The translations under genes were made by a program, and so were the position numbers. Shown piece after piece: positions 16,004 through 39,305 of a stretch of 64,000 nt of DNA. How positions within the stretch are numbered: the stretch's first letter is position 1; each line of letters opens with the position of its first letter. The DNA lies in NCBI GenBank assembly GCA_003279685.1, contig QCHA01000002.1, forward strand, positions 16,303 to 80,302. Direction: 5' to 3'. Below the pieces are notes generated by a model. It was not told the DNA's origin. It made no database searches and saw nothing but the letters and a program-made list of their open reading frames with translations. Origin of the DNA: Pelagibacteraceae bacterium AG-390-L03. Its GTDB lineage: Bacteria; Pseudomonadota; Alphaproteobacteria; Pelagibacterales; Pelagibacteraceae.

Positions 16004-17206
16004 ATGAAAATAACTAAAATGATCTATGTTATTATGTTTTCTTCACTTCTTGGAATATTTAGCACAGCAAATTCAGGTGAATTGTGCACAGAGTGTCTAA
16101 AAAAAGTTCCACAAGAAATGAGAGACTATGTTTATAACATGGACTTTATGGATAAAGACCAACCTTTAGGACCTGCGGTAATGAAAGGATGGAAAAGTCC
16201 TAGAAAACCACCGTGGACTATTGGTTACGCTAGTACGTATGCTGGAAACACTTGGAGAAAAGGTGCAATGGAAAGATTAATGGAAGTTGTATATCCTAAG
16301 TGGAAAGCACTAGGAATGGTTGATGAGATTGTAATTACTCAATCAAACTTAGATGACTCATTACAAATTCAGCAAATGAGACAAATGATAGATGGGGGTA
16401 AAGTTGATGCAATTATTATATGTTGCTCTAATATAACTGCTCTTAACACTACTATTAAGTATGGTTGGGAAAAAGGTATACCTACATTATCATTTACAGG
16501 CTTTACAACATCTCCGTATTCAATCAACACATCTGTTAATTACAGATTAGTTGGTTACTATGTAGGTGCATGGATGGCTGAGCTTATTGGAGAAAAAGGT
16601 AATGTTATAGTTATCGAAGGAATACCAGGTTATTCTGCTTCAGACCAACAAAACAAAGGGGTACTAGCTGCGTTGTCAGAATTCCCTGATGTAAACGTTG
16701 TTGGACAACTAGCACATAACTGGACTTCGCAAGTTGCTCAAAAAGAACTGTCACAATGGTTATCAACAAATACAAAAAAAGTTGATGGTATTGCTGTTCA
16801 ATCTTCAGGAGAAACTGGAACTTTGCAGGCCCTACTTCAGTCTGGACTTGATCCAATTCCACCAATTGCATTAGGAGGAGAACTTGGTGCATTATGTTAT
16901 TGGAGACAAAACCCAGGATATATTGATGAAGCAATATATGCATGGCCTCCGGGAGATGAAGTTGAGCTAGGTATGGATGTAATGATTAGAACTTTGCAAG
17001 GTCAAAGTCCTATGATTCAGTCTATATTAGTTGGTCCAGCTACGAAAAATTTCGATGAAATCAGTGAAATCTTAAATGAAGATTGTGATCGAAATTCTAC
17101 TGGTTGGGATAATCCTGGAATGGACAAATGGGCTCCTAAAGAATACGTAGAAGCATTCTTTGAGAATCCAAGCGATCCTACAAAATACGATCCAAAATCT
17201 CACTAA
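16004..17206 (+). CDS. Ribose/sugar-type (Peripla_BP_4-like) ABC substrate-binding protein
   Basis: Signal peptide, AAGGAGGGG RBS, WTIGYASTYAGNTWR, GKVDAIII, GNVIVIEGIPG. Confidence 0.8.
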   Translation: MKITKMIYVIMFSSLLGIFSTANSGELCTECLKKVPQEMRDYVYNMDFMDKDQPLGPAVMKGWKSPRKPPWTIGYASTYAGNTWRKGAMERLMEVVYPKWKALGMVDEIVITQSNLDDSLQIQQMRQMIDGGKVDAIIICCSNITALNTTIKYGWEKGIPTLSFTGFTTSPYSINTSVNYRLVGYYVGAWMAELIGEKGNVIVIEGIPGYSASDQQNKGVLAALSEFPDVNVVGQLAHNWTSQVAQKELSQWLSTNTKKVDGIAVQSSGETGTLQALLQSGLDPIPPIALGGELGALCYWRQNPGYIDEAIYAWPPGDEVELGMDVMIRTLQGQSPMIQSILVGPATKNFDEISEILNEDCDRNSTGWDNPGMDKWAPKEYVEAFFENPSDPTKYDPKSH

Positions 17207-17221
17207 TACTTATAACTAAGT

Positions 17222-18967
17222 ATGAGTGCTGAAAAAAATATAGAAGACAACACCTCTAAAGAGGTGTTGTCTGAGAAGTCAAAAACTGTCCAAGGTGATA
17301 TTTATGTCCAAGATGTTCACAAATATTTTGGTGTGACCAAAGCCTTGAACGGAGTAAATTTCAATGCAAATTTTGGTGAAATTCATGCAATTGTTGGAGG
17401 AAATGGCTGTGGCAAAAGCACATTGGCAAAAACAATGTCTGGAGTTTTGCCAGTAGATAAAGGTAAAGTTTCAATACTTGGTCAAACTCCTACTTCCCCT
17501 GTAATGGCGAGAAACATGGGAATTGCAACAGTTTTTCAAGAAGTAATGATAGCTGAAGAGTCATCAGTAGTAGACAACTTATTTGTTGGCTCAGATGATT
17601 TTTGGTACAAAAATTTAACCCAAAGAGAAAAAGTGCTTAAAGCTCAAGAAATTATGGAAGATCTTGTTGGTGAATACGTTGATCCATATACGCAGGCATT
17701 TAATTTATCACTTCCCATAAAAGCATGGATAACAATTGCTAGAGCTTTCTTGAGAGATAATACAAAAGTATTAATTCTAGATGAGTCATCAGCTGCTCTT
17801 GATTTTGATTCCACTGAAAGATTATTTAAAAAAATGAGAGAGTTACGTGACAAAGGAGTTGCAATTTTCATTGTTACTCACCGAATTGCTGAGCTAGTAC
17901 GAATAAGTGATAAAGCAACTGTTATGAGAGATGGTAAAGATGTAGGGGTGTTAGAAAAAAAAGATCTTAATGAAAAAAATTTAATAGGCTTAATGACTGG
18001 TAGAGAAGAAACAGGAGAAAAATCCACTTCAATAGCTATGCAAACTAAAACAGATAAAGTTGTAATGAGAGCAGAAAATTTAATTGTTTGGCCAGACAGC
18101 AAACCTATCAATTTTGAAGTCAAAAAAGGAGAAATTGTAGGCATAACAGGTCTTGATGGTAATGGACAAGATGACTTTGTTAAGATTTTAGCAGGTGTAC
18201 AAGAATCTCATGGTGGGACTATTGAAATTTTAGACTCAAATGAAAAATTTTTAAAATATAATTCTTTAGAAAGTGCAAAAGAAAATGGAATATCATTTGT
18301 TTCTGGTGATCGAAAAAAAGAAGGAATACTTCCTAACTTAAGTATTTATGAAAATTTAGTTGTACCTCTTTACAAAAAAACTAGCAGAGCAGGATTTTTA
18401 GGTTTTATTAACTGGATGGAACTGAATGGAATTTATGATTGGGAAGTAGAAAGATTAAATATTAAAACTGGCCCAAGTGATAATCTAATTGGTTCACTAA
18501 GTGGAGGAAATCAACAAAAAGTAATGATAGCAAGATCATTTGCACAGCATCCAAAAGTTCTTATTTTAAATGATCCAGCAAGAGGCATAGATATAAGCAC
18601 TAAAAGAGACCTGTATGTTCATTTAAGAAAATATGTTGAAGAAGGTAACACAGTTGTTTTTTTATCAAGTGAACTAGAAGAATTTATTGGGCTATGTCCA
18701 AAAGTTATAGTTTTTAGAAATGGGACAATATTTGATATTTTTGAAAATGATAAAATTAATGCTGATACTTTACTTGAAGGAATGTTTGGTCAAACCGCTG
18801 GGGTTGGTGAAACAACTATTTCAGCTAAACCTAATGTTTCAGCAATAATAAAAAATAAAGCTGAAAATAAAACCGAACCTGAAGGAAGAAAGATTGTAAA
18901 AATAGTAAATTTTGATGATGAAAATAACAATAAGAATAATAATAAAATAAAAGTTAAAACTTTTTGA
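17222..18967 (+). CDS. CUT2 sugar ABC ATP-binding protein (two ABC domains) with a low-complexity C-terminal tail
   Basis: GGNGCGKS, LILDESS, LSGGNQQK, LNDPARGID; about 55 extra C-terminal residues. Confidence 0.88.
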   Translation: MSAEKNIEDNTSKEVLSEKSKTVQGDIYVQDVHKYFGVTKALNGVNFNANFGEIHAIVGGNGCGKSTLAKTMSGVLPVDKGKVSILGQTPTSPVMARNMGIATVFQEVMIAEESSVVDNLFVGSDDFWYKNLTQREKVLKAQEIMEDLVGEYVDPYTQAFNLSLPIKAWITIARAFLRDNTKVLILDESSAALDFDSTERLFKKMRELRDKGVAIFIVTHRIAELVRISDKATVMRDGKDVGVLEKKDLNEKNLIGLMTGREETGEKSTSIAMQTKTDKVVMRAENLIVWPDSKPINFEVKKGEIVGITGLDGNGQDDFVKILAGVQESHGGTIEILDSNEKFLKYNSLESAKENGISFVSGDRKKEGILPNLSIYENLVVPLYKKTSRAGFLGFINWMELNGIYDWEVERLNIKTGPSDNLIGSLSGGNQQKVMIARSFAQHPKVLILNDPARGIDISTKRDLYVHLRKYVEEGNTVVFLSSELEEFIGLCPKVIVFRNGTIFDIFENDKINADTLLEGMFGQTAGVGETTISAKPNVSAIIKNKAENKTEPEGRKIVKIVNFDDENNNKNNNKIKVKTF

Positions 18968-19476
18968 TGAAAACAGAGAATAAACATAAATATTATAATG
19001 ATGAAGATGAAATAAATTTTGAAAAATTAAATAATTTTAGAAAATTTAATTCTAACCTTAAAAATAATATTCAATCAAATAATCATATTATTAAGTATGC
19101 TAATTCTGATAAAAATTATTTTAATAATATTTTAAAGATTGATCAAAAAGCCACTAAATATAATGAAAATGATAAGGAAAAAGAGATAAACTATTATAGC
19201 CTATCAGACTTTCAAAAATTTGATCAACTAGATAGTTTTTCTGAACATAATAATACAGAAAAAATACAAAAAAAAATTAATCTCAAATCAAACTATTCAT
19301 CTAAAGACCATGAAGAGTTTAATAAAATAATTCCAAAAAGAAATTCAGATCAAGAAAAAAATAACGAACTAAACGAAAAAATTAGAGTAATTGATTACAG
19401 TAAAATAAATGAGAATGAAAAAAAACTTAAAAATAAATTTGGGATTGATAAAATAAAAGTAGTTTATTTTGATTAA
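18964..19476 (+). CDS. Orphan N/K/E-rich protein with four ~33-aa-periodic repeats
   Basis: Start overlaps the ATPase stop (ATGA); Y-x3-D-x3-F-x2-[IL] at aa 11, 45, 78, 111; fills the gap inside a tight operon. Confidence 0.7.
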   Translation: MMKTENKHKYYNDEDEINFEKLNNFRKFNSNLKNNIQSNNHIIKYANSDKNYFNNILKIDQKATKYNENDKEKEINYYSLSDFQKFDQLDSFSEHNNTEKIQKKINLKSNYSSKDHEEFNKIIPKRNSDQEKNNELNEKIRVIDYSKINENEKKLKNKFGIDKIKVVYFD

Positions 19477-19481
19477 AAAAA

Positions 19482-21806: not shown

Positions 21807-23207
21807 ATGAAAAAATCAGCATTTCTTTTTTTTAAAGGACTAGGATTATTATTTGCAATTCTTTGTGGAATAGGAACTGCTTTTCTTGGTTGGTATGATG
21901 GCGCAGATTGGATGAATATTGCTACCTACTCTATTGCTGTAACTGGATTAATATTGTGGGGATGGTACCATTTTTCTGTAAGATGGATTAATGAAGATTT
22001 AAAACAAAATATCTTCACTAAATTTCCTAAAGAAGAAATTATAAAAGACGAAGAAGATGAAGAAAATTTTTTCTTCAAAAATATTAGAGAAAATAAATGG
22101 AAAACAATTGCTTTCCTTGGGGTAATTCTAATCTTTATTTTTGTATCTTTTGTAGCAGATGATTTCTTTTCAGGAAGAACCCTAGTTTCATTTTTGATCT
22201 TTTTAGTATTTGTGATTTTTATGGGTATTATCAGCAGATACATAAAAGGTTCAAAAAGTGTTTTTGTAGGGATCTCTGTGTTGATTGGATTGTTTATTAT
22301 TGGATCTCTAACCATACCTGGTTTCTTAACAACCATGAACATGAAATCAATGTTGGTTTTCGCATCATTTTTAGGACTAGCTACTATTGGTCAGACTTTT
22401 GTTGCACTTTTAGGGGGTTTAGATCTTTCAATTCCATTTGTTATTGGCTCTATGAATGTTGGTTTAATGTCGTTAATTTCAAAAGGAGTTCCACCCTGGT
22501 TAGCATGCATAGTAATATTATTGCTAGGAGCTTTAATTGGATTTGTTAATGGAACTCTGAGTTTTAGGCTTCAGGGACAAGCATTAATTTTAACCTTAGG
22601 TGTCGGATTTTTTGTTAAAGGAGGAGTTCAAATTTTAGTCTCTATGGGAACTTTCTCAGCAGGTACAGTTTTTGGTGTAGTACCAGATTGGATGCAAAAT
22701 TTGGCCTCTATGGGAGGAAAAACTATTGGTCTTCCAATACCTCCTGTGATCATTATTTGGATAGTTGCAAGTATATTAGTTATTGTTGCACTTAGATTAA
22801 CAAAATGGGGAAGGCATTTATATGCTTTAGGTGGAAGTAGATTGTCATCATCAAGACTTTCTATTTCTGAAAGAGGATACTGGGTTGGTGCTTATGTTAT
22901 TAGTGGATTTTTCTCAGCTTTAACTGGAATTCTACTTCTTGGTTGGAGTGGTGGAGGATATGTAGGTGCTGGAGATATTTATTTATTCACAACTATAGCT
23001 GCAGTGGTTATTGGTGGAACTTCATTATTAGGAGGTTCTGGAGGTTATGGGTTAAGTGTTATTGGAGTATTTATATTACAAATAATAACAACTGTATTAA
23101 TTGGATGGGGTTTAAGTTGGGAAGCACAACAATTTATTTTAGGATTACTTATTATTCCAATGGTTGCCCTATACGCAAGATCCCCACATATAAGAAGCCA
23201 GATATAA
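21807..23207 (+). CDS. CUT2 ABC permease with a ~150-aa N-terminal TM extension
   Basis: GGLDLSIP, WGRHLYALGGS, VVIGGTSLLGGSG; extra N-terminal helices and acidic linker. Confidence 0.82.
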   Translation: MKKSAFLFFKGLGLLFAILCGIGTAFLGWYDGADWMNIATYSIAVTGLILWGWYHFSVRWINEDLKQNIFTKFPKEEIIKDEEDEENFFFKNIRENKWKTIAFLGVILIFIFVSFVADDFFSGRTLVSFLIFLVFVIFMGIISRYIKGSKSVFVGISVLIGLFIIGSLTIPGFLTTMNMKSMLVFASFLGLATIGQTFVALLGGLDLSIPFVIGSMNVGLMSLISKGVPPWLACIVILLLGALIGFVNGTLSFRLQGQALILTLGVGFFVKGGVQILVSMGTFSAGTVFGVVPDWMQNLASMGGKTIGLPIPPVIIIWIVASILVIVALRLTKWGRHLYALGGSRLSSSRLSISERGYWVGAYVISGFFSALTGILLLGWSGGGYVGAGDIYLFTTIAAVVIGGTSLLGGSGGYGLSVIGVFILQIITTVLIGWGLSWEAQQFILGLLIIPMVALYARSPHIRSQI

Positions 23208-23219
23208 AGGAGAAGATTT

Positions 23220-23939
23220 ATGATAGAATTAAATTGCGATATGGGTGAAAGTTTTGGGATCTATAAAGCGGGTAATGATGAAGAGATAATGCCATTAATA
23301 GATATAGCAAATGTTGCCTGTGGGTTTCATGCTTCTGATCCTAATCATATGAGAAAAACTGTGGCACTTGCAAAAAAACATGGGGTAAAAGTTGGTGCTC
23401 ACCCTTCTTTTTCTGATCTGCAGGGATTTGGAAGAAGAGAAATAAAAATGCCAAGACAAGATATAAAAAATATGGTTATGTATCAGGTAGGTGCTTTAAA
23501 ATCATTTTTAGATGAACAAGATATGCCTTTGAACCATATCAAACCTCATGGATCATTATATGTTATGGCTGCGAAAGATGAAAATATGGCTAACGCAATT
23601 GCAGATGCTGTTGAAACTTTTAATGTGAGTATTTTTGGAATGGCAAATACTTGTCATGAAAAGGTTTATAAAGATGAAAGAGGTTTAAATTTTATAGCAG
23701 AATTTTATGCTGACCTAGATTATGATAAAGAAGGAAACCTAGTTGTAGCTAAAGGAAAAAATGCTAACTACGATAGTAAAATTGCAGCCAAACGTGTCAT
23801 GCGTGCATTAAAAGAAAAAAAAGTTACCAATACTATTGGTAAAGATATAAATGTTGGTTGTGATACAATTTGCGTTCATTCAGATACACCTAATGCAGTT
23901 GAAATAATTACAGGTATTAAATCAGCTCTTAGTAAATGA
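23220..23939 (+). CDS. pxpA: LamB/YcsF family protein (5-oxoprolinase subunit A-like)
   Basis: LNCDMGESFG, ANVACGFHASDP, GAHPS, HIKPHGSLY, TICVHSDTP. Confidence 0.92.
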   Translation: MIELNCDMGESFGIYKAGNDEEIMPLIDIANVACGFHASDPNHMRKTVALAKKHGVKVGAHPSFSDLQGFGRREIKMPRQDIKNMVMYQVGALKSFLDEQDMPLNHIKPHGSLYVMAAKDENMANAIADAVETFNVSIFGMANTCHEKVYKDERGLNFIAEFYADLDYDKEGNLVVAKGKNANYDSKIAAKRVMRALKEKKVTNTIGKDINVGCDTICVHSDTPNAVEIITGIKSALSK

Positions 23940-26389
23940 AAAGAATTTTAATAGCTAACAGAGGTGAAATAGCTTGTAGAATTATTAAAAGCTGTAAAAA
24001 ACTAGGTATACAGTCAATTGCTGTATATTCAGATATAGACAAAAACAGCAAACACGTTAGAGAAGCTGACGAGTCAATCCACATAGGGGGGTCAAAAGCA
24101 CAAGAAAGTTACCTTTTCGCAGAAAAAATCATTGAGGTTGCTAAAAAACTAAATGCTGATGCTATTCATCCAGGATATGGATTTATGGCCGAAAATGCTG
24201 AATTTGCCCAGAATGTAATAGACTCAGGGATAATTTGGATAGGCCCAAAACCAAGCACTATCATATCAATGGGTAATAAAGATGTAGCAAGAGATTTGGC
24301 TATAAAAAATAACCTTCCTATTTGCCCAGGGTTAAAAGATGAAGATTTAAAAAAAGATGATCTAGAAAATAAATGTAATGAAATTGGTTATCCAATTTTA
24401 ATAAAGGCAAGTGCTGGTGGTGGTGGAATTGGAATGCGAATAGCAAACAATTATGAGGAATTAATTCAATCAATTGAAAAAACTAAAAATTTAGCAAAAA
24501 AAGCATTTGGTAATAGCGATATTTTTTTAGAAAAATTTATTTCAAATGCAAGGCATATAGAAATTCAAGTTTTTGGTCTTGGTGAAAGAAAAGCTTTGCA
24601 TTTCTACGAAAGAGATTGCTCAATACAAAGACGCTTTCAAAAAATTATAGAAGAAAGTCCCGCTCCTGAGATTAAAGACTCAATAATTAATGAGATGGCA
24701 GAAAGTGCAGTAAATTTTGTTACAAATCAAAAATATGAAGGAGCTGGTACAATAGAATTTATATACGACATTGATAATAAAAAATTTTATTTTTTAGAAA
24801 TGAATACTAGAATTCAAGTAGAGCACCCTGTTACAGAGATGATCACAAATTCTGATTTAGTTTCAATGCAAATCCAATTTGCATTAAACCTAGATCTACA
24901 ATCTATAGAACAAAATAAAATTAATAAATCAGGACATGCTATTGAATGTAGATTATATGCTGAAGACCCAGCTAAAAACTTTCTTCCTTCTCCAGGTAAA
25001 ATTACTAAATTAAATCTTCCTAATACTGGTTTTGTAGATATTAGACTTGATATAGGTGTAGATGAAGGAGATGAGATATCTTTTTATTATGATCCAATGA
25101 TTGCAAAAATTATTTCAAAAAGTGAAAATAGAATAGAAAGTATAAATAATATGATTCATTATTTAAGTGAATTAAAAATAGAAGGAATTAATACAAATAA
25201 ATCTTTTTTAATTTCAGTTTTAAAAAATGAGTCTTTTGAAAAAGCAACTTATAATACTAAATTTATAGAAAATAATTTATCTTTATTTACAAAAGAATCA
25301 GAAACTTTAAAAAAAAATATAAGTAAAACTATTAATGAAGAAAATATTGTTCAAAAATATACTGATAAAGATGTTGAGGCTTTTAAAAAAATCACAGCAC
25401 AATCTCCTAATAAAAAACACTCAGACCACTACACTGAAAATGATTTCAAAGCATTTAAGAATATTTTAAATAAAAAAAATGATAATCAAAAAAAAGGTTC
25501 TATTAAAAATATAATAGGAAAAGTATATGAAGAACCATTATTTAAACCAGGAGGTGACAAATATATGGTCATTGAATTTGGTAATCTTATGGATCTAGAA
25601 ATTAACTTTACAGCACAAAACTTAGCTAAAGCTATTCTTGATAATAAAATCAAAGGTATTTATGAAACTGCTCCATGTTTTGCTTCGATGCTTATTCATT
25701 ATAATCCTGATGAAATAAAATTTAATGATTTAAAAAATGAGATGAAGTCACTTATTAAGTCATTAGGTCCAACTGATGATATTGAGATTAATAGTAGAAT
25801 TTTCTCATTTCCCACTGTTTATTTAGATAAATGGACAAAAGAATGTATTGAAGATTATTCAAGCAAAATTGTAGAAAAAACTCCTGATCCTGATTTTATT
25901 GTAGAGCTAAATAAACTTGAAAATACTGAACAATTTGTAAGGGTTCATTCTGGAACTGAATATTGGGTTTCGGCACTAGGTTTTTGGCCAGGTCTTCCAT
26001 TTATGATGCCTTTAGACCCTAGATGTAAATTAACTGCACCAAAATATAATCCACCAAGAACCTGGACCCCAAAAGGTGCCGTAGGAATGGGTGGATCTTC
26101 AACTTCAATATATCCTGATAGATTGCCTGGTGGTTATCAAATTTTTGGAATAATACCTGTTCCTATTTGGGATACTCAGAAAAGTTTTTCTGTATTTGAA
26201 GAAAGTATCTGTCTTTTTAAACCTGGTGACAGAGTAAAATTTGTACCCACAAGCTACGAAGAATTTGATCATGTTTCGAATAAGGTAAAGGACAAATCCT
26301 ATGATTATAATATTATTGACTATCAAAAATTTTCAGTAAAAAATTATAAAAATTGGTTAACAACAATTGATAAAACAAAAAGATTTTAA
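23936..26389 (+). CDS. Biotin carboxylase fused to a carboxyltransferase C/D (PxpB/AHS1-like) domain
   Basis: ANRGEIACR, HPGYGF, GGGGIGM, ERDCSIQRR, EMNTRIQVEHPVTE, YYDPMIAK; ~70-aa linker; then GFWPGLPF, PKYNPPRTWTP, PGGYQIFG. Confidence 0.88.
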   Translation: MKRILIANRGEIACRIIKSCKKLGIQSIAVYSDIDKNSKHVREADESIHIGGSKAQESYLFAEKIIEVAKKLNADAIHPGYGFMAENAEFAQNVIDSGIIWIGPKPSTIISMGNKDVARDLAIKNNLPICPGLKDEDLKKDDLENKCNEIGYPILIKASAGGGGIGMRIANNYEELIQSIEKTKNLAKKAFGNSDIFLEKFISNARHIEIQVFGLGERKALHFYERDCSIQRRFQKIIEESPAPEIKDSIINEMAESAVNFVTNQKYEGAGTIEFIYDIDNKKFYFLEMNTRIQVEHPVTEMITNSDLVSMQIQFALNLDLQSIEQNKINKSGHAIECRLYAEDPAKNFLPSPGKITKLNLPNTGFVDIRLDIGVDEGDEISFYYDPMIAKIISKSENRIESINNMIHYLSELKIEGINTNKSFLISVLKNESFEKATYNTKFIENNLSLFTKESETLKKNISKTINEENIVQKYTDKDVEAFKKITAQSPNKKHSDHYTENDFKAFKNILNKKNDNQKKGSIKNIIGKVYEEPLFKPGGDKYMVIEFGNLMDLEINFTAQNLAKAILDNKIKGIYETAPCFASMLIHYNPDEIKFNDLKNEMKSLIKSLGPTDDIEINSRIFSFPTVYLDKWTKECIEDYSSKIVEKTPDPDFIVELNKLENTEQFVRVHSGTEYWVSALGFWPGLPFMMPLDPRCKLTAPKYNPPRTWTPKGAVGMGGSSTSIYPDRLPGGYQIFGIIPVPIWDTQKSFSVFEESICLFKPGDRVKFVPTSYEEFDHVSNKVKDKSYDYNIIDYQKFSVKNYKNWLTTIDKTKRF

Positions 26390-28008: not shown

Positions 28009-28845
28009 TTAATCGTAATAAAACATTGGAGCTTTTTTCCAATCTAACCATGTAACAGGGTCATGTCCCCAAACTACTTTAGCATTATAATCTTTGGCAA
28101 CTTTTCTTAATTTTTTAACAGAGTCAGCCGCATCTGAAGCAGAAGCAACAAGTCCAGGCAGACATTTATCACACCAATGATCTCCTGTATAACATGCGTC
28201 TCCAGTAAATAACATATGTCCAGTTTTTGGTAAATTTACAAGAACCGATTGATGACCAGGAGTATGTCCAGGAGTAAATATTATTTTAATAACACCATCT
28301 CCAAAGACATCATAAAAATCTGTTTTTCTTCCCTGTAAAAATTTCCATCTTATATTTGGTTTATCAAAATCTGCTCTTACATAAGCTGGTTGTGAAAACC
28401 AGTCTGGATTGAATGCATAATCGTATTCTACTCTTTGTGTAATATGTGTTGCATTAGGAAAGTGACCAATTGCTCCTGAATGATCAAGATGTAAGTGAGT
28501 TTGAATAACATATTTAACATCCTCTGGGTTTGTGTTTACAGATTTAACTACTTCTTTGCACCACTCTGAAGCTTTCATCACAGGATCATAAGCCTCAACA
28601 ACATTTCCCCAATGTTTATGTTTGTCTAGAGCTGCCTCAATTGGCATTCCTCCATCAATAATAACATCTCCTTCAGGATGTTTAATTAAAAACCAAGGTA
28701 CAGGAATTTCATAAGCTTCTTCACCTTGATTCATCTTTATGAATTTCAATTTAGTTTTTATAGAACCAGTTTGAAACATATATAGTTTAATTCCACTATT
28801 AAACTTTGTTGTTTTTTCAAAAAAGTCATCAGAAATATTATTCAT
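28009..28845 (-). CDS. attM: AttM/AiiB-type lactonase (metallo-beta-lactamase fold)
   Basis: HLHLDH, TPGHTPGH, GDACY, GHD; also KMNQG..YEIPVP, PDWF, DFDKP and KKAP features recalled from AttM/BlcC. Confidence 0.85.
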   Translation of the reverse strand: MNNISDDFFEKTTKFNSGIKLYMFQTGSIKTKLKFIKMNQGEEAYEIPVPWFLIKHPEGDVIIDGGMPIEAALDKHKHWGNVVEAYDPVMKASEWCKEVVKSVNTNPEDVKYVIQTHLHLDHSGAIGHFPNATHITQRVEYDYAFNPDWFSQPAYVRADFDKPNIRWKFLQGRKTDFYDVFGDGVIKIIFTPGHTPGHQSVLVNLPKTGHMLFTGDACYTGDHWCDKCLPGLVASASDAADSVKKLRKVAKDYNAKVVWGHDPVTWLDWKKAPMFYYD

Positions 28846-32132: not shown

Positions 32133-32498
32133 TTAAGTGCAGCGTCTAGGTGCTGATTCACCTTTTTCTTTTTTAATTCTTTCAGCTTCTTCTTGGGCTT
32201 CTTTAATCGTTGAGTAAGCCTTATCTTCAAATATTATAAATGGTTTAGCTCTATCAGCATTCAATTGAGCAACACACCATTCTTTGTCAGGTTTAGTGCA
32301 CATCACCATATACGCACCAGGTATAGGTCCATATTTTCTATTATTTAATGTAAAAAGGCTTTTTGCCAGTTCATTCAATTTATCTTCATCCAAATTCCCT
32401 AGAGCATTTTTTTCCAAATTATTTAATGGAGTTTTATTGTCTGAACCTAAAATACTTTTTCCACCTGTTCCTTCAGGTCTAGTAAATTGATTGCTCAT
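32133..32498 (-). CDS. Second dimethylformamidase small-subunit-like protein (partial homolog)
   Basis: YMVMCTKPDKEWCVAQLNADRAKPFIIFEDKAYSTIKEA aligns by eye with KYVTVCKKDFEDYRIGIVTGVRGDPVEILEESFSSEEA of the 34878 protein. Confidence 0.55.
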   Translation of the reverse strand: MSNQFTRPEGTGGKSILGSDNKTPLNNLEKNALGNLDEDKLNELAKSLFTLNNRKYGPIPGAYMVMCTKPDKEWCVAQLNADRAKPFIIFEDKAYSTIKEAQEEAERIKKEKGESAPRRCT

Positions 32499-34855
32499 TA
32501 TGGTAATGGTCCATCTTTTAAAAATCCTCTAATTGTATTTTCTAAAATTTTAGAGACATTATTATTGTAATTATTGTAAGACAAACTTCCACAGAAAGAA
32601 AGTGATCCAGGAGCAAACAAAGCTCCATCGTTTGGTGTTTTGTAATAAATCATATCTGCTCTAACCATAGGATTTTCTGTACCTCCGCCGTAATATCCTC
32701 TTACAGTAAAATGAATCTCTTCATTTACTTGCATCATTAAATTTGTATGGTTTTCTGATCTTGCTAATAGATAAGCATTATGAGGTGTTCCAAATTCTAA
32801 ATCATATCTATCAAGCTCAAGTCCTGCTGCACCTCCACCTACTAAGCCAAAATCTCCTATTACTTCATCTTTTCCAACACCATCAAAAATCCAAGAACAT
32901 TCAGGTCGTTCGCTATCAGGAGACCTTTTGTAATAAGAGCTAACATCAAATCCATATGCTGTAAAAGTTAATCCACATACTTTTGATGGTATTCTCCCTC
33001 GAGCTCTCCACATACCTCCATATTTTCCATCAAAGGCATTATTGTATTCTCCTGGGTTTGCAGTCCATGCTCTAGTACCAGCTTCACCTTTTCTTACTTC
33101 AATGATATTTGGATTGTCAGGGTGATACTCGCTAATCCAATAAAAACCATCTGAACCTAAGTATATCCATCTTCCACCATTAAGCTGATATTGCTCATAA
33201 GCTGCTAACATTTTTTCAGAACTATATTCAGGATGTGATCCTGTTAAAACACATTTGTATCTATTTAACAATTCTACACCTTCTAAATGTAAGTCTTCGT
33301 CTGTAACAACATCAAAATCTAAATTTTTTTCTTCTAACCAATCAGTTAAATGCAAATCTGCATTAAGTTGCCAAAGAGAAGGTGATAACCAATGTCTATA
33401 TTTTGGTCTCATATTCAAAATAGGTCTTAGTCTAGATGCAATTGCAACACCACTTCCATCTGAATGTTGAGAGTAAGTTGATAATCCATATTCTCTATGT
33501 TCATTTAAATACAAATCTGATGCTGACATAACTGGTACTTTTCCAGCTAATAATTGAGCTACAACTGAATTAGTACCAAGGTTATCATTAGAATAGGCTA
33601 TGTAACTATTTGTTGGCAAAACAAATAGAAGGTCCGAAGTAGTTTTTCCTTTAGGAGGTTTGATTACAAATGGAATAAAATCCTCTGTTTCTGCTGAATC
33701 TTCACCATTTATTCTTAATCTTGCTGCATAAACTCCACTTTTAATTTTATCTGGGACTTTATAAACAAAATCTACATCCCATCTTGCATCGTCAATATCG
33801 TCATCGTGAAAATGAATGGCACCGTACTCTTCTGGCTTATGATGAAATACCATTTCATCAGCGGTCCAATTGTATCCTGTCATAGCTCTACATGGTAAAT
33901 TTATAATAAAGCCATTAAGATGATTAGATGTCATATCAACAATTAAAGTTGATGCCATATTTTTAGTGATGTTAGCATGAAAATCCCAAGCTCCTATAAC
34001 TTCAGATCTTAGCTCAGAAGTACAACCGCTAAACCCTCTAGCGAGAGACTCTATCTCTGATTTAGATAATGCTTTTTTACTTAATCTTGGCCTATCTATC
34101 TTTCCGTTATAAGTTAAAGTTTGTTCTGGTAATTCAATGGGACTAAGTGCTTCTTTATAATGTCCACCAAAAATATGTCTTCCAGATCTATCATTTAATG
34201 TGCTTGCTGCCATTAAGAATGGAGCATCATTGGCTCTTGGTTTTAAATTACTAATAGATTCAACATAAGCTGTAGTTTCATCAGCTGGATGAAGAAGTGA
34301 CATACCAAGTCCACCGTTAGTAGGTGTAACACAAGGCTCTTGATATAGTTTTAATTTTCCTGTTTCCGCATCATACGTAGCTGCTACTAAGTACCAAACT
34401 TTTCTCATTAATTTCTTTTCACTAGAAACTGAAGTTGTTTGCCCTCCTCCGTCTCCAATCATTACTGATAAACAACTATTCTCATCTATAAATAACCCAT
34501 AGCCACTTTGAGTTTTATCATTCCATTTTGTTAAGATTCCCTGTTTACCTTTGTCTGGTGTTGTAGGGAAAATATAAGCCTGTAGAGTAAAGCTTGTTGT
34601 ATTTAATCTTTCATCTTGAGGTATTACAATATAGGAGCCTCCATGAATTTTTTGATTTTTTCCTTGATAATTTCTATTACATTCAGCACCTATCTCTTCA
34701 TCTTTATACCCTGGTCCTTCAGGATTTGTGTCTCCATGAATTAATCTAACAATTTGAACCTCATAATTTTCATTTTTCTCTGCATTAACATAAAATTTAA
34801 TCTCTTCACCTGGAAAAGATGTGTACTTATCGCTATATCCTGTAATTCTTAACAT
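32498..34855 (-). CDS. dmfA2: N,N-dimethylformamidase large (beta) subunit family protein
   Basis: ITGYSDKY start, LamG-like N-terminal part, WDFH, NSYIAYSN, GLSTY, GSHPEY, GFYW, GLELDR, VRADM. Confidence 0.88.
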   Translation of the reverse strand: MLRITGYSDKYTSFPGEEIKFYVNAEKNENYEVQIVRLIHGDTNPEGPGYKDEEIGAECNRNYQGKNQKIHGGSYIVIPQDERLNTTSFTLQAYIFPTTPDKGKQGILTKWNDKTQSGYGLFIDENSCLSVMIGDGGGQTTSVSSEKKLMRKVWYLVAATYDAETGKLKLYQEPCVTPTNGGLGMSLLHPADETTAYVESISNLKPRANDAPFLMAASTLNDRSGRHIFGGHYKEALSPIELPEQTLTYNGKIDRPRLSKKALSKSEIESLARGFSGCTSELRSEVIGAWDFHANITKNMASTLIVDMTSNHLNGFIINLPCRAMTGYNWTADEMVFHHKPEEYGAIHFHDDDIDDARWDVDFVYKVPDKIKSGVYAARLRINGEDSAETEDFIPFVIKPPKGKTTSDLLFVLPTNSYIAYSNDNLGTNSVVAQLLAGKVPVMSASDLYLNEHREYGLSTYSQHSDGSGVAIASRLRPILNMRPKYRHWLSPSLWQLNADLHLTDWLEEKNLDFDVVTDEDLHLEGVELLNRYKCVLTGSHPEYSSEKMLAAYEQYQLNGGRWIYLGSDGFYWISEYHPDNPNIIEVRKGEAGTRAWTANPGEYNNAFDGKYGGMWRARGRIPSKVCGLTFTAYGFDVSSYYKRSPDSERPECSWIFDGVGKDEVIGDFGLVGGGAAGLELDRYDLEFGTPHNAYLLARSENHTNLMMQVNEEIHFTVRGYYGGGTENPMVRADMIYYKTPNDGALFAPGSLSFCGSLSYNNYNNNVSKILENTIRGFLKDGPLP

Positions 34856-34877: not shown

Positions 34878-35303
34878 TCATTGTCCATGTCTTTCTAAAA
34901 GATCTAAAATTCTTTTTAAAAAAATTGCATGTTCGACAGCTTCTTCAGAAGAAAAAGATTCTTCTAAAATTTCAACTGGATCTCCTCTTACTCCTGTAAC
35001 TATTCCAATTCTATAATCTTCAAAATCTTTTTTACATACCGTTACATATTTTTTAATTGCCATTGGTTGTCTTCGAAGTTTATCTAAAACAATTTGAAGT
35101 TCTTTACTATGTTCAACCATTGGCTGACCTTTATGAGGTTGTGGGGCTCGACCAACTGGAGTTGCTCTGTGTTCTTCTATTAATTTGTTTCTCATTTTTT
35201 CATCTCTTAATAGTGGTAATACATATTTTTCAGTAATATAATCATCAGTACTTGTGTGACCAAGATTAAGTTGAACTCCTGTTTTATCTTTTTCCATATC
35301 CAC
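34878..35303 (-). CDS. dmfA1: N,N-dimethylformamidase small (alpha) subunit-like protein
   Basis: LIEEHRATPVG, HSKELQIVLDKLRRQP, EHAIFLKRI; immediately upstream of the large subunit. Confidence 0.75.
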   Translation of the reverse strand: MDMEKDKTGVQLNLGHTSTDDYITEKYVLPLLRDEKMRNKLIEEHRATPVGRAPQPHKGQPMVEHSKELQIVLDKLRRQPMAIKKYVTVCKKDFEDYRIGIVTGVRGDPVEILEESFSSEEAVEHAIFLKRILDLLERHGQ

Positions 35304-35317: not shown

Positions 35318-36172
35318 TTACTTATTGGTCCTTTCTTGGATTATTTTCAGAGCTTCTATTAAGTAAACTCTAAATAACTCATGATTTTCACTCATTGGAA
35401 AATGCCCTATATCAGGCATTTCAATATAAACTCCGCCTTTAATTTGTCTTGCTGTATTTTCAGTAGCTTCAGGTGGTGTTAAATAATCATAAGTTCCAGT
35501 CATCATTATTACTGGACATTTATGACCATCAATATTCTTCAATTCATTTCTTAAGTCATGATCAACGGAATAAAAATATAAATCACCTTTAAATGCCTCA
35601 GATCCCTGAGTGTAATAATGCCATGTCAACCATCTATCTTTTTCAGGTGATTGAGGTGCCATTAAATCCCACGTACCACTTCCACAAACTTGAGCTGCGT
35701 TTGCATGTGGATGTCTCCACCAATCTAAATAGAAACCTGGCGCATGATCTGCTGCCTCAACTGGAATAACGGCTCTAAATTTATTAGGATGACGAAGGGC
35801 TAATTGCAACGCTACATTTCCTCCAAAAGAAGACCCCATAAAAATAGGATTTTTTAAATCTAATGCTTCACATAATTTAATTATAAAATTACAATAATGT
35901 TCTGCAGTTAGTTTGTATTCTTCTTTCCAAAATTCTTTATTATGTGGAGGGTCTGATTTACCATGTCTAGGTAAGTCATATGCAATTACATTGTAATTTT
36001 TTATAATTTCTTCATCTTCAAGAAGTCCTCTCCATTGATGATTATGACAACCCGCAGTATGTTGACAGATTAATGGTATTCCTTTTCCATTTTGAAGATA
36101 AAAAACTTTATATTCACAATCATCTACTTCAATAGTAACATACCGCCCTACTACACTGTGATGCTTTACCAT
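35318..36172 (-). CDS. Alpha/beta hydrolase
   Basis: YDLPRHGKS, nucleophile elbow GSSFGG, GTYD, GHFP. Confidence 0.85.
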   Translation of the reverse strand: MVKHHSVVGRYVTIEVDDCEYKVFYLQNGKGIPLICQHTAGCHNHQWRGLLEDEEIIKNYNVIAYDLPRHGKSDPPHNKEFWKEEYKLTAEHYCNFIIKLCEALDLKNPIFMGSSFGGNVALQLALRHPNKFRAVIPVEAADHAPGFYLDWWRHPHANAAQVCGSGTWDLMAPQSPEKDRWLTWHYYTQGSEAFKGDLYFYSVDHDLRNELKNIDGHKCPVIMMTGTYDYLTPPEATENTARQIKGGVYIEMPDIGHFPMSENHELFRVYLIEALKIIQERTNK

Positions 36173-36205: not shown

Positions 36206-36595
36206 TTATACGGGAACTCCTGATTTTCTTAATAGTTCAAATTGAACAGTAAAATTTCTTAAATTTTTCATTAAAATTAAATGATTGCCCTCTATTTTTA
36301 AATCTTTTCTAAAACTTGCTGACCAAATACCATGATACATAGGTTTAGGTATTGGCTGACTAAATTCTTTCCAAGTGTTTGCGGAAGCCCTTAAAGCGAA
36401 ATCATATGGGTCTAATGGGCCTGGGTTAGTATTAATATTTTTCACTTTTCCATCATGCATTTCAATAATGACTTTTGCTTTTTCCATATCAAACATAAAT
36501 GAGCATGAATAATATTTTGCCATAGCAGCAATAGTTTCATCACTATTTGTAAGATCTTCGTACTTTTTTGCCCAATTATTCAAATCACTACTCAT
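36206..36595 (-). CDS. SCP2/sterol-carrier-like domain protein
   Basis: 129 aa; IEMHDGKV, DFALRAS..TW, LKIEGN..LM fit an SCP2-like fold; weak. Confidence 0.5.
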   Translation of the reverse strand: MSSDLNNWAKKYEDLTNSDETIAAMAKYYSCSFMFDMEKAKVIIEMHDGKVKNINTNPGPLDPYDFALRASANTWKEFSQPIPKPMYHGIWSASFRKDLKIEGNHLILMKNLRNFTVQFELLRKSGVPV

Positions 36596-36609: not shown

Positions 36610-38586
36610 TTATTTAGAACTTTTAGGTCCTTTAGTTGGATCATTATCAAAATTCATATGATAATCTTTTTTCGGATTTTCATAATCGCCTAAAATATTT
36701 CTAATATTACTTATTTCACCTGGTGCCATTCCAATTTCTTTAAGTAAACTATCTAAGAAAGGTTGATGAGCTCTGTAACGTAATGCAGAACTAACTACAT
36801 TGTCTGCTAAATTACCGCTTCTTGCAGATCCACCTGTACCATCAGATGCTTCTCCACCGCCTCCTCCAGTGCTGGATGTTCCGCTAAAGCCTGGCAAACC
36901 ATTAACATCAACAATTTTAATATCTCCAATGTTAGCCATTGGTTTAACACTTTCTCTAATGATTGACTCAATCTTATCAGCAAGTTTTAAACGTAATGCA
37001 CTTCTTCTACTTGCATCACTTCTAAGATTTTCAGCAGAGTTTAATGCTTCTTTACCTGCAGCATCTATCTCATATCTTAATTTTGCAGCCATAGTTGCAT
37101 GTCTATCTTGCTCAGCTCTAGATGCAGCTGTTATTACATCTACTTTTTTAATCCCTTGTGCTTTTTCAACATATCTAGCTGAATTAGCTTTTTCTTCTGC
37201 TTCTATAGCTCTAGCTCTAGAATTTTCTTCTTCAGCTTTTGATTTTAAAACCTGTTTCGACTTATTAATCACTTCAAGATTTTTTTGATGCTCTTCAATA
37301 CTTAATCTTTTAGCTTTTTCTATATCAAGAAGTCTCACTACTCTTTCAGATTCAATTCTATGTGAGTCTATATTTTTTTGTTGTTCAATCTTGGCATTTT
37401 TAACTTGTTGTTCTGAAACAATTTGAGCTTCTTCAGCCTCCTTTTGTCTTTCAGATTGTTCTTTTATAATAGCAGCTTTTTCTTGAGCTCGTTTGATATC
37501 AACTTGTCTTTGCTTTTCAAGTCTTGCATATTCACTTTCTTTATCAAGATTTAAAATTTTAACTTCTGTTTCTAAATCTTTTTGTCTTATTTCAAACGCT
37601 GAATTTTTCTCTAATTCATTTTGCTCTTTTCTTCTTTTTTCGATTTCTTCAATAAGTCTTGTTTCTGTTAATTTTCTTTCAACCTCGATAACTTGATTTT
37701 GTGAAATTTTTGCAACTTCAATTTGTTCTTGACTTCTTATTTCAGCTTCTTCTGCTTCTCTTTCTTTCTCAGCTTTTTCTTTTATTGTCTCTGTTTTTTC
37801 TTTAGCTCTTTGAATAGCTATTTCTCTTTCTTGTTGATACTTAGAAAACTCCTCATTTTTCTTAATTTCTAATTCTTTTTGAACTGTCTCTAAATTTTTA
37901 TTTTCAATTGAAATTTTTGTATCTTGAGTAATATCATTTCTCTTTTTCTTTCTCTCTTCAATTTGCTCAGTCAATTGAGTTAAACCCTGAGAGTCAAAAG
38001 TATTAGCAGGATTAAACATTTCAATCGGTGCTTGATCAAGAGAGATGATAGAAACTGTTTCAAGTGCCAATCCAGTATGCCCTATTGATTCATTTGCAAT
38101 GTTTGCAACTTGTTTAACAAATTGACCTCTATTTTCTTGTATTTCATCTAAGGTCATTTTTGCTGCAACTTCTCCAAGGGCGTCTGCAAAACGACCAGCA
38201 ACAACCTCTTTTAAATGTTCTGGATCAAGAGTTCTGTTACCTAAAGTTTGTGCTGCAGTTGATACTGCTTTAGCCTCTGGTGGAACTTTCGTAAAAAATT
38301 CTGTAACAAGTTCTGCTCTCATTCTATCTTTTGTAATTAGAGATTTGTCACCTGCTCTCTTTATATTTAGACTAAGTGTACGCATTCCTACTTGTGTAAT
38401 ATTATGAATTATAGGTAAGACAAACGCACCACCAGATATAACAACTTTTTCCCCTAACATACCTGTACGTACAAACGAAACTTCTTTTGATGATCGTCTG
38501 TATAACCAATGTAATAAGTAAACTATAATCGCAATTGCAAGTGCGACTAAAATTATACCTGCTATTATGTCTGCTCCTTTAGTCAT
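36610..38586 (-). CDS. Flotillin (SPFH domain, long E/K/Q coiled coil, Flot C-terminal domain)
   Basis: N-terminal TM, FVRTG, LITKDRMRA, NTFDSQGLT, long coiled coil, SVKPMANIGDIKIVDV. Confidence 0.92.
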   Translation of the reverse strand: MTKGADIIAGIILVALAIAIIVYLLHWLYRRSSKEVSFVRTGMLGEKVVISGGAFVLPIIHNITQVGMRTLSLNIKRAGDKSLITKDRMRAELVTEFFTKVPPEAKAVSTAAQTLGNRTLDPEHLKEVVAGRFADALGEVAAKMTLDEIQENRGQFVKQVANIANESIGHTGLALETVSIISLDQAPIEMFNPANTFDSQGLTQLTEQIEERKKKRNDITQDTKISIENKNLETVQKELEIKKNEEFSKYQQEREIAIQRAKEKTETIKEKAEKEREAEEAEIRSQEQIEVAKISQNQVIEVERKLTETRLIEEIEKRRKEQNELEKNSAFEIRQKDLETEVKILNLDKESEYARLEKQRQVDIKRAQEKAAIIKEQSERQKEAEEAQIVSEQQVKNAKIEQQKNIDSHRIESERVVRLLDIEKAKRLSIEEHQKNLEVINKSKQVLKSKAEEENSRARAIEAEEKANSARYVEKAQGIKKVDVITAASRAEQDRHATMAAKLRYEIDAAGKEALNSAENLRSDASRRSALRLKLADKIESIIRESVKPMANIGDIKIVDVNGLPGFSGTSSTGGGGGEASDGTGGSARSGNLADNVVSSALRYRAHQPFLDSLLKEIGMAPGEISNIRNILGDYENPKKDYHMNFDNDPTKGPKSSK

Positions 38587-38600
38587 ATATTATTCCCCCC

Positions 38601-39305
38601 TTAATTCTGATTACCTTTCTTTGTATCTTCTAAAGCTGCGCTATAAATTATCATTCCAAAAATGATTTTATTTAATACGTCAGCTAAATTATAAATTATG
38701 TTTAAACTGTTAATATTTGCTCCACCAGCAAGGTGCTCTATAAAGTATCCAATATGATATATTGAAAAACCTATTGTAATTATTAGTCTATTTGCAAAAA
38801 ATGCCATCTGAACTCGCTCATTATTGCAAGATGCATTTGCTCGTCCAGCATCTCCCATATAAAGCTCTCCAATGATATAAAGCCATCCAACAATACCTAC
38901 TAAGAACCCAAGAGTTACACTCATGTAACCATAAGCCCCTAAAAGTTGTGCAATAACCCAAACTAACGTCCCAACTAGCAATCTCCAGAACATTCCACGC
39001 TTAATATCTGTAACTGACTTAAGCATCACATAGAAAGTGAGTATTGTAAGTGGAAATGTTAACAGCCAATCAATATATCTTAGCGCTGTTGGTGCTTGAC
39101 CATTCAAAACCCACAAATTTTTTGCATAGAAGTAATGAATCGATGACATTAATGCTATAACACCAACTAAATTCATTACTGTTCCCCATTTTGGAGACAG
39201 TCGTCCTCTTTCAAGAAAGAAAAATATTGCTGCACCTATCATCGCTACGGATATTAACCAAAAAGATCCGCCTACTACGTCTTGTGGAAGCAATAATTTG
39301 TTCAT
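38601..39305 (-). CDS. Proteorhodopsin-family paralog with DTT motif (flotillin-associated rhodopsin)
   Basis: Seven TMs, SFW, HY, RYIDWLLTFPLTILT (D79/T83/T90), NLADVLNK (K213); adjacent to flotillin. Confidence 0.92.
   Translation of the reverse strand: MNKLLLPQDVVGGSFWLISVAMIGAAIFFFLERGRLSPKWGTVMNLVGVIALMSSIHYFYAKNLWVLNGQAPTALRYIDWLLTFPLTILTFYVMLKSVTDIKRGMFWRLLVGTLVWVIAQLLGAYGYMSVTLGFLVGIVGWLYIIGELYMGDAGRANASCNNERVQMAFFANRLIITIGFSIYHIGYFIEHLAGGANINSLNIIYNLADVLNKIIFGMIIYSAALEDTKKGNQN

Follow-up and report, generated by a model that had tools for sequence, protein, structure and literature searches.

Light harvesting is the published idea about the role of the flotillin-associated rhodopsins (FArhodopsins), which abound in SAR11, HIMB59 and Pseudothioglobus. 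The flotillin-associated rhodopsin (FAR) cluster was described by Haro-Moreno et al. (2023, mSystems; PMC10308929) as a region of approximately 26 kb with border spacers of 236 and 219 nt and ten co-directional genes beyond the spacer; the proteins named in it are flotillin, an SCP2-like protein, dimethylformamidase, PxpA, biotin-dependent carboxylases, hydrolases and an iron-containing alcohol dehydrogenase (Fe-ADH). These authors regarded flotillin as critical for the cluster genes, proposed that the rhodopsin might have a tuning effect on proteorhodopsin under dim light, and suggested urea degradation. They reported the cluster from no isolate; its read recruitment was highest at the deep chlorophyll maximum and in the lower photic zone, and rhodopsin and flotillin were co-transcribed in a 60-m metatranscriptome. 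The FArhodopsin of Pseudothioglobus (PsFAR) forms a pentamer that contains no retinal; H84 and E120 are the blocking residues, and no flotillin- or proteorhodopsin-specific interface was seen (Kovalev et al. 2025, bioRxiv 10.1101/2025.04.29.651185). Here we examined a stretch of 64,000 nucleotides (the window), C2:16303-80302 of the single amplified genome (SAG) AG-390-L03 of a Pelagibacteraceae bacterium, in which window position + 16302 gives the C2 coordinate. It contains the FAR cluster as two facing operons, hereafter called the island (Table 1). We put at about 0.55 the probability that the island encodes an importer-centred assembly, in which a small polar cyclic amide or ester would be imported and opened at the membrane; this reading is built on protein families, gene neighbourhoods and short conserved motifs.

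The locus is the published FAR cluster

Table S2 of PMC10308929 places the rhodopsin gene at C2 54903-55607, that is, window 38601-39305, and lists the other island genes as well, with identical protein sequences. The window therefore holds the reference FAR cluster of SAG AG-390-L03, and the system was already known: the DNA, the genes, the border spacers and the DTT rhodopsin are the same, without any sequence difference. We measured flanking spacers of 218 and 235 nt (published: 219 and 236 nt). The first-pass annotation of this DNA, made from the letters alone, had presented the extension of the rhodopsin-flotillin genes to the plus-strand operon as possibly new; it is not, as Table S2 lists both operons gene by gene. 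The main text of PMC10308929 does not discuss the ABC importer, the peptide tags and motifs, the box shared by the two upstream regions, the identity of p141 as a small subunit or the module variants. What appears to be unpublished is the constancy of the importer link, the modularity of the island, a network of tags and motifs with lineage-specific fusions, the replacement of the biotin enzyme by HyuAB, the shared upstream box and a cultured carrier.

The plus-strand set (16004-27981) and the minus-strand set (39305-28009) comprise ten genes each. The earlier count was right for the minus strand and one too high, at eleven, for the plus strand; its coordinates, strands and gene content were correct. 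Spacers run from -4 to 30 nt in the plus operon and from -1 to 33 nt in the minus operon, or 34 nt ahead of the symporter if its start is placed at 32098 as in PMC10308929, in keeping with the limit of about 35 nt given before. The two operons converge on a gap of 27 nt (27982-28008), all A/T-rich, in which we found no terminator-like hairpin, and the convergent gap without a GC-rich terminator described in the first pass is confirmed. Domains were called with Pfam and NCBIfam, and these calls upheld the earlier ones with refinements, among them that the 'formamidase' is of the N,N-dimethylformamidase type and not a nitrilase-superfamily formamidase. In relatives, about 600 nt at the operon junction encode an eleventh plus-strand gene, for a GST-like protein of about 200 aa, between p69 and the lactonase. 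This gene is deleted here, frameshifted in one related genome (G151) and apparently truncated at its N-terminus in another (G149); HIMB59 also has a GST gene, after that of the biotin carboxyl carrier protein (BCCP).

The rhodopsin gene (39305-38601) lies directly upstream of the flotillin gene (38586-36610) on the same strand, with a gap of 14 nt (16 nt in PMC10308929). Its product has the features expected of a FArhodopsin, namely the DTT residues (D79, T83, T90) as one of the variants DTT, DTL and DNI of this group, the conserved lysine (K213) and an aromatic residue, F84, at the position predicted to block the retinal channel, and a proteorhodopsin paralog, 44% identical, is encoded elsewhere in the genome (C1:98886-99572). 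It belongs to the same clade as PsFAR, and K213, S54, D79, D209 and an aromatic residue at position 84 are common to both; the two differ at positions 84 and 120 (F84 and Q120 here, H84 and E120 in PsFAR). By analogy with PsFAR, for which the lack of retinal and of pumping has been shown, the window protein would also be free of retinal. The flotillin is the sole copy in the genome.

The importer stays beside rhodopsin and flotillin in different gene orders

The first five genes of the plus operon encode an importer and its adaptor. A Peripla_BP_4 binding protein, an ATPase with two fused nucleotide-binding domains (NBDs) and permeases with BPD_transp_2 domains identify it as a CUT2 ABC importer. 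It differs from other CUT2 importers in its permeases, which have 774 and 466 aa instead of about 330, and in the tagged tail of its ATPase. The large permease is enlarged in all lineages (714-771 aa), but has about 460-480 aa in a high-GC lineage. The binding protein, whose closest solved structures are the CUT2 binding proteins 4RSM, 4RS3 and 5HKO (E~1e-19), was found in every lineage version of the cluster.

Among 301 Pelagibacteraceae genomes, flotillin occurs in 5, the close amidase in 6 and PxpC of the island type (at least 69% identity) in 6, and together they mark 7 genomes. In each of these seven carriers the island is collinear with the window or interrupted by a contig end, and about 294 genomes carry no part of it; the independent assortment of the two operons, named in the first pass as the outcome that would speak against a joint system, was not seen. 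An ordinary pxpC, about 33% identical, is present in most genomes of the family, including this one. The same gene order was found at 63 loci in species-representative genomes. One of these is the cultured Candidatus Pelagibacter sp. Uisw_094 (NZ_CP159823.1; L020/L001-L002), whose complete genome holds the whole island in the arrangement of the window. All Pelagibacter copies of the island are at the same chromosomal site. Between species, island proteins are more alike (rhodopsin 94%, hydrolase 95%, binding protein 88-96%) than the products of flanking genes (65-87%; 14267-41498 compared with L001-L008), which suggests strong selection or recent exchange of the island.

Three architectures were distinguished in SAR11. 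Architecture A is that of the window. Architecture B, found in three SAGs, lacks the carboxylase genes, and its importer operon runs straight towards the lactonase gene. In architecture C the carboxylase operon is divergent, and substrate-binding protein (SBP), ATPase, permeases, rhodopsin and flotillin are followed by further genes up to the lactonase on one strand. The HIMB59 genes are interleaved: PxpA, biotin carboxylase (BC), the two permeases, rhodopsin and flotillin are on one strand, and SBP, ATPase, PxpB, PxpC, BCCP and GST diverge from them on the other. When metagenomes were scanned with the Pseudothioglobus ATPase as seed, 79 loci with at least eight gene orders were obtained, and all 25 metagenome loci of at least 17 kb with an orthologous ATPase also hold rhodopsin and flotillin. 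In several lineages the rhodopsin gene is 15-130 nt downstream of the permease genes. The adjacency of the importer to FArhodopsin and flotillin survives at least eight gene orders in SAR11, HIMB59 and gammaproteobacterial and other metagenomic lineages. The core that recurs in most of the gene orders seen consists of importer, rhodopsin, flotillin and symporter, in agreement with the co-occurrence column of Table S2. The amidase trio, the pair of SCP2-like protein and hydrolase, and the lactonase are frequent across lineages; the carboxylase module is found only in SAR11 and HIMB59.

Tags and motifs recur on importer and enzyme proteins

Three proteins of the plus operon, the ATPase, the adaptor p170 and the PxpC-like protein, end in a bipartite tag that reads h-K-[IV]-[IV]-[DN]-[FY] and, after 9-22 residues, K-[IV]-[KRV]-x-F-[DN]. 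Across six genomes the linkers drift and the tag is kept. A second motif, Y-[STN]-x2-D-x3-F-x-[KN]-[IL], is present in four copies in p170 and in two in the linker between the BC and PxpB parts. The tag pattern matches 3 of the 1694 open reading frames (ORFs) of the genome, all three in the island, and the strict form of the second motif has 6 matches genome-wide, 5 of them in the island; as both patterns were derived from island proteins, this enrichment is partly circular, and it shows specificity rather than providing an unbiased test. The tags noticed in the first pass are real, conserved across genomes and, in this genome, unique to the island.

We regard the cross-lineage behaviour of the tags and motifs as a stronger argument than these in-genome counts. 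The tag of the ATPase is kept in SAR11, HIMB59 and two metagenomic loci (L130/L131), and its linker is not. HIMB59 carries the tag on the ATPase and on an unfused BC, its PxpC being untagged; its motifs are found in the lactonase and in an extension at the N-terminus of PxpB. The ATPases of the Pseudothioglobus type have 717-763 aa; their extra residues (about 200) hold 4-5 copies of the motif and are in effect a fused adaptor, without a beta-tag. In other lineages a separate adaptor ORF of 200-256 aa with 2-4 motifs and the tag follows the ATPase. The fusions thus vary by lineage (ATPase with adaptor, adaptor with PxpB, BC with motif linker and PxpB). Among 5929 unannotated ORFs of the metagenome loci, the motif occurred only in adaptor ORFs.

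The HyuA/HyuB pair provides a further case. At locus L131 the pair fills the same operon slot, with the adaptor on one side and the permeases on the other, and the bipartite tag is found again at the end of HyuB. The HyuAB family includes ATP-dependent hydantoinases, oxoprolinases and caprolactamases (CapAB), which open a cyclic amide with ATP; compared with the biotin enzyme of the window, these enzymes work alike and are unrelated in sequence. Two unrelated ATP-dependent enzyme systems, the biotin enzyme and HyuAB, therefore share one slot and one tag. On a deep SAR11-like contig (L137 1-2939, minus strand) an untagged HyuB-HyuA pair follows the carboxylase operon, and both ring-opening systems are side by side; HyuAB is not present in the genome of this window.

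In AlphaFold2 (AF2) models, the core of the window ATPase was modelled and its tail (residues 535-581) was unstructured, with pLDDT below 50. The ATPase-adaptor fusion of the Pseudothioglobus type gave the same result, a modelled core and a tail with pLDDT below 50, and the motifs alone were predicted to be helical. Disordered tails with helical motifs would fit peptides that fold on a partner. We think that the beta-tags may zip the ATPase, adaptor and enzyme chains together, because they occur only where these are separate chains. The helical motif should bind some protein of the universal core (rhodopsin pentamer, flotillin, permease or ATPase), since it is present even where no enzyme is nearby. 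The large permease has at residues ~355-400 a SAR11-specific loop with strand-like repeats, IIIEKVVETD and NIIVEDSE, that resemble the tag; we rejected this loop as a universal tag receptor because it occurs only in SAR11-type proteins and is absent from the HIMB59 and gammaproteobacterial versions. The flotillin strand IKIVDVNGLPGF is kept in all lineages; as a tag mimic (IKIVDV) it is too short to evaluate, is probably an ordinary motif of the Flot domain and would be speculation. The tags also recall the cargo-targeting peptides of encapsulins and bacterial microcompartments and the SPFH cages (HflK/C-FtsH), a resemblance in principle only: short terminal peptides are found on unrelated enzymes encoded beside a cage- or scaffold-forming protein. 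The tag pattern fits mutual zippering as well as cage targeting, and no evidence was found that the tags bind flotillin.

The island enzymes differ from the systems they resemble

The large amidase subunit aligns end to end with Paracoccus N,N-dimethylformamidase (6LVB) at about 50% identity, and a small-subunit homolog, p141, adjoins it. The motifs SYIAY, LSTY and HPEY, which hold the Tyr/Tyr/Glu iron ligands, are kept in the alignment with 6LVB_A. p141 has no transmembrane (TM) segment; its label in Table S2 is 'inner-membrane translocator'. In contrast to 6LVB, a second small protein, p121, is encoded here; it accompanies the amidase in all lineages and gave a borderline hhalign match to p141 (probability 50%, E 1.7e-4, 54 columns). 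Dimethylformamide is unlikely as an ocean substrate, and another solved relative of the amidase, 8HUY, acts as an acylase on N-acetyl-beta-phenylalanine. In a SAR11 genome that lacks the island, a dimethylformamidase-like gene with 42% identity is present (G031:C1:1314756-1316219).

The carboxylase of the plus operon resembles urea carboxylase (UC) in having BC, carboxyltransferase (CT) subdomains A-D and BCCP, and UC is the best-scoring model. Membership in that family was rejected: the BC and CT parts score 725 and 304 bits against a cutoff of 1303.85, and where UC is a single chain, BC-CT(A/B)-CT(C/D)-BCCP, the enzyme is here split into three chains and permuted, with BC fused to CT(C/D), and goes with PxpA. 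No allophanate hydrolase or carboxyguanidine deiminase (CgdAB) was found in a search that covered the 20 genes of the island only. The PxpABC 5-oxoprolinase was rejected as well. PxpA passes its model (282 bits, cutoff 226), but PxpB (85.9 against 145.55) and PxpC (174.8 against 500) do not, and the CT(A/B) protein is nearer to UC (304 bits with the urea_carbox model, 175 with PxpC). PxpABC is a biotin-independent enzyme of three subunits; here the operon also encodes a BC domain and BCCP, and an ordinary housekeeping pxpABC is present elsewhere in the genome (C1:28048-30359), its PxpA (G000 C1:29646-30359) being 32% identical to that of the island.

The biotin enzyme with PxpA/LamB resembles a fungal pair. 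In Aspergillus nidulans, lamA and lamB are genes of lactam (2-pyrrolidinone) catabolism in the gamma-aminobutyric acid (GABA) regulon, and LamA is urea-carboxylase-like. There as here, a LamB/YcsF protein would be paired with a biotin-dependent urea-carboxylase-like protein; fungal LamA is one long chain, whereas the BC+CT(C/D), CT(A/B) and BCCP parts of the island enzyme are split, permuted and peptide-tagged. The enzymes point to the opening of a cyclic amide or ester, through the UC-like carboxylase with PxpA/LamB here and tagged HyuAB elsewhere, in line with the first-pass suggestion that a cyclic compound is opened.

As in BlcABC (AttKLM) of Agrobacterium, a gene for an AttM-family lactonase is directly followed by one for an Fe-ADH. 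The lactonase passes the AttM equivalog cutoff and is near a solved N-acyl-homoserine lactone (AHL) lactonase (PDB 9KHO, E 4.5e-97). We nevertheless rejected membership in the BlcABC pathway, because the Fe-ADH reaches 228 bits against a cutoff of 500 in the 4HB dehydrogenase model and is no equivalog of any named enzyme, and no aldehyde dehydrogenase is encoded in the island, which thus lacks the succinic semialdehyde dehydrogenase of BlcABC. The Fe-ADH is replaced in architecture C and is marked as taxon-specific in Table S2.

Both operons are preceded by the same box

The 15-mer TATAAAAATTATATA is found upstream of both operons, exact in both copies, each oriented with its own operon. These are the only two sites with at most one mismatch in the 64-kb window (0.26 expected) and the sole exact copies in the 1.35-Mb genome. 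The core TAAAA..TATA is conserved upstream of the FAR gene (51 regions) and, to a moderate degree, upstream of the SBP gene (8 regions). The box is short and AT-rich in a genome of 30% GC, and two matches were reached in 5 of 100 shuffles; a local alignment of the upstream regions scored 37, compared with 27 +/- 4 in shuffles, a value reached by 9 of 500. We consider the shared box to be moderate evidence for co-regulation of the two operons, and the island behaves as one co-inherited unit that is probably co-regulated.

A proposed importer-centred assembly and its alternatives

In the importer-centred assembly that we propose, the CUT2-type ABC importer would take up a small polar cyclic amide or ester. 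Its ring would be opened at the membrane at the expense of ATP, through N-carboxylation on biotin and then hydrolysis by PxpA/LamB, with related ring or N-acyl bonds as possible targets of the lactonase, amidase and dehydrogenase. The soluble enzymes would be tied to the importer by the bipartite C-terminal beta-tag, carried by one enzyme subunit as well as by the ATPase and p170, and by the helical motif Y-x3-D-x3-F-x-K-L, repeated in the adaptor and in enzyme linkers. Four lineage-specific hydrolytic modules are attached here to the core of importer, rhodopsin, flotillin and symporter: the dimethylformamidase-type iron amidase with its small subunit and second small partner; the SCP2-like protein with the alpha/beta hydrolase; the AttM-type lactonase with the Fe-ADH; and the split, domain-permuted, biotin-dependent urea-carboxylase-like enzyme with PxpA/LamB. 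From the identity of these proteins, their synteny and co-occurrence, and the conservation and fusions of the motifs, we infer that the proteins assemble physically, what class the substrate belongs to, and that flotillin and rhodopsin would serve as a scaffold. A more detailed version, to which we give rather little credence, is a peptide-addressed transport metabolon: motifs and tag would recruit the ring-opening enzymes to the importer beside a retinal-free rhodopsin pentamer under a flotillin scaffold, so that flotillin and rhodopsin would form a membrane-bound compartment or hub, served by targeting peptides of its own, and a MipZ/ParA-like ATPase might position it. Should the assembly exist, a transporter and the first catabolic enzyme would be physically coupled, which is rare in bacteria, and a retinal-free rhodopsin would for the first time have a cellular role.

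Several observations weigh against this assembly, besides the circularity of the in-genome tag counts and the AT-richness of the upstream box. The binding protein resembles sugar/polyol binders and not known lactam binders. Three SAR11 SAGs lack the carboxylase module, as do all the gammaproteobacterial and high-GC versions that were seen; because it is dispensable, the whole plus operon is not an obligate partner, and the importer half is. No ring-opening enzyme was seen adjoining the importer in clusters of the Pseudothioglobus type. Neither tail docked in the AF2 models, so that no partner is indicated, and since the members of one genus inherit the whole island together, the co-occurrence counts are non-independent events.

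The island might also be a flexible genomic island of functionally unrelated cassettes (a microdomain pair, two transporters and catabolic enzymes) transferred together as a block. In Pelagibacter all copies share one chromosomal site, and their conservation exceeds that of the core genes around them, as would be expected of a recombining island; the carboxylase, GST and Fe-ADH modules can be lost. We find this explanation unlikely, as the adjacency survives at least eight gene orders in several bacterial orders, the HIMB59 genes are interleaved within operons, the tags and motifs are common to proteins of different modules, including the HIMB59 lactonase, and the operons have an upstream box in common. 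The published dim-light hypothesis, by which FArhodopsin and flotillin form lipid-raft heterocomplexes with proteorhodopsin that improve light harvesting, and the metabolic genes are incidental, agrees with the proteorhodopsin paralog in the genome, with read recruitment, which peaks at the deep chlorophyll maximum and in the lower photic zone, and with rhodopsin-flotillin co-transcription (PMC10308929). However, the Pseudothioglobus FArhodopsin lacks retinal and has no flotillin- or proteorhodopsin-specific interface (bioRxiv 10.1101/2025.04.29.651185), the window rhodopsin has the same blocking aromatic residue (F84), and in several lineages the rhodopsin gene adjoins the permease genes (15-130 nt downstream); we therefore hold this hypothesis to be very improbable. 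The comparative evidence points away from light harvesting, in that rhodopsin and flotillin have their most constant partners in a symporter and an unusual ABC importer.

Two further explanations concern the substrate. A urea or guanidine carboxylase would make the island a means of scavenging nitrogen from urea-like compounds; TIGR02712 is indeed the best NCBIfam model for both the BC and the CT parts, and all four UC modules are encoded. This seems hardly likely to us, given that the scores remain under the equivalog cutoff with the chain split and its domains permuted, that the partner is PxpA/LamB and no allophanate hydrolase or carboxyguanidine deiminase is in the island, that the importer is of the sugar type CUT2 and not Urt, and that HyuAB, of the ATP-dependent hydantoinase/oxoprolinase/caprolactamase family, replaces the biotin enzyme in another lineage. 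Breakdown of AHLs or of gamma-butyrolactone-type signals would assign a role to most of the minus operon: the AttM lactonase, above its equivalog cutoff and near a solved AHL lactonase, would open the ring, the amidase, with the N-acyl amino acid acylase 8HUY among its relatives, would remove the acyl chain, the SCP2-like protein encoded nearby in the island would handle the lipid tail, and the Fe-ADH would oxidise the hydroxy acid. We judge it improbable all the same, since the lactonase is common only to SAR11 and HIMB59 (Table S2), the Fe-ADH is taxon-specific and under every equivalog cutoff, no succinic semialdehyde dehydrogenase is encoded, and neither a polar sugar-type importer nor a symporter would be expected for AHLs, which permeate membranes.

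Other genes of the island and its borders

Features of the two operons and their borders are given in Table 1. The alpha/beta hydrolase, 80-95% identical across lineages compared with 35-94% for the rhodopsin and 44-91% for the flotillin, appears to be the most conserved protein of the system, and p129 is always paired with it. The BC and PxpB parts, fused here, are separate genes in HIMB59; the homolog search with the fused protein returned a list filled by near-identical SAR11 proteins. The small protein p69 has a conserved C-terminal end, EIK-x-[FY]I-x-IN-x-x-SLV, and homologs in SAR11 relatives and HIMB59 (p47 in L079, 47 aa).

Table 1. Features of the island and its borders (window coordinates).
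Feature	Position	Strand	Evidence or remark
Shared upstream box	15905..15919	+	85 nt before binding-protein start codon
Periplasmic substrate-binding protein, CUT2 sugar/polyol type, Cys-containing N-terminal extension	16004..17206	+	Peripla_BP_4 E 2.8e-38
ABC ATPase, two NBDs, ~55-aa tail ending in bipartite tag (..KIVKIVNFDDE..KIKVKTF*)	17222..18967	+	ABC_tran x2
Adaptor p170, four Y-x3-D-x3-F-x-[KN]-I motifs and bipartite C-terminal tag	18967..19476	+	
ABC permease, enlarged, 774 aa, about 20 TM (per PMC10308929)	19482..21806	+	BPD_transp_2 only at residues 53-316
ABC permease, enlarged N-terminus, 466 aa, 14 TM	21807..23207	+	BPD_transp_2 residues 179-450; size kept in all lineages
PxpA/LamB-YcsF lactam-hydrolase-type subunit	23220..23939	+	LamB_YcsF E 8e-92; NF003814 282 bits, cutoff 226
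Biotin carboxylase fused to CT subdomains C/D (PxpB-like), linker with two Y-x3-D-x3-F-x-K-I motifs	23936..26389	+	
CT subdomains A/B (PxpC-like), bipartite tag (..IKIIDFDK..MKIRFFN*)	26395..27519	+	CT_A_B E 7e-86
Biotin carboxyl carrier protein (EVMKT)	27550..27768	+	Biotin_lipoyl E 5e-12
Small protein p69, hydrophobic C-terminus	27772..27981	+	no Pfam/NCBIfam match
AttM/BlcC-family metallo-beta-lactamase-fold lactonase	28009..28845	-	NF045700 400.9 bits, cutoff 390
Iron-containing alcohol dehydrogenase	28854..30020	-	Fe-ADH and ADH_Fe_C; under every NCBIfam equivalog cutoff
Sodium:solute symporter, 688 aa from the ATG used in PMC10308929	30032..32098	-	SSF E 2e-19; in all lineages
p121, possible second small-subunit-like amidase partner	32133..32498	-	hhalign vs p141
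N,N-dimethylformamidase-type large subunit (mononuclear iron amidase)	32498..34855	-	PDB 6LVB_A E 2.7e-190, end-to-end alignment
Dimethylformamidase small-subunit homolog p141	34878..35303	-	PDB 6LVB_B E 4.3e-6, residues 42-127 of 132
Alpha/beta hydrolase	35318..36172	-	Abhydrolase_1
p129, SCP2-like lipid-binding protein by InterPro call IPR036527 in Table S2	36206..36595	-	no Pfam/NCBIfam match here
Flotillin: N-terminal TM, SPFH domain, long coiled coil, Flot domain	36610..38586	-	PF01145 E 6e-10, PF15975 E 1e-28
FArhodopsin, DTT type	38601..39305	-	Bac_rhodopsin E 3.5e-27
Shared upstream box, second copy	39386..39400	-	81 nt before rhodopsin start codon
MipZ/ParA-family ATPase	39541..40179	+	cluster gene cds01 in Table S2

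The MipZ/ParA-family ATPase at the rhodopsin end adjoins the island in every architecture, and a 212-aa CbiA/MipZ homolog lies beside the HIMB59 cluster. The gene is absent from all 60 other near-complete genomes of the family; it is island-specific and travels with the island. Because ATPases of the ParA type position large cellular assemblies, this protein may position that of the island. Just outside the other border, on the minus strand (15471-15785), is a gene for a small secreted Cys-rich protein with a Lys-rich tail, labelled 'SAR11 only' in Table S2; homologs of it adjoin the cluster in HIMB59 (L079 14880-15395) and occur in L137.

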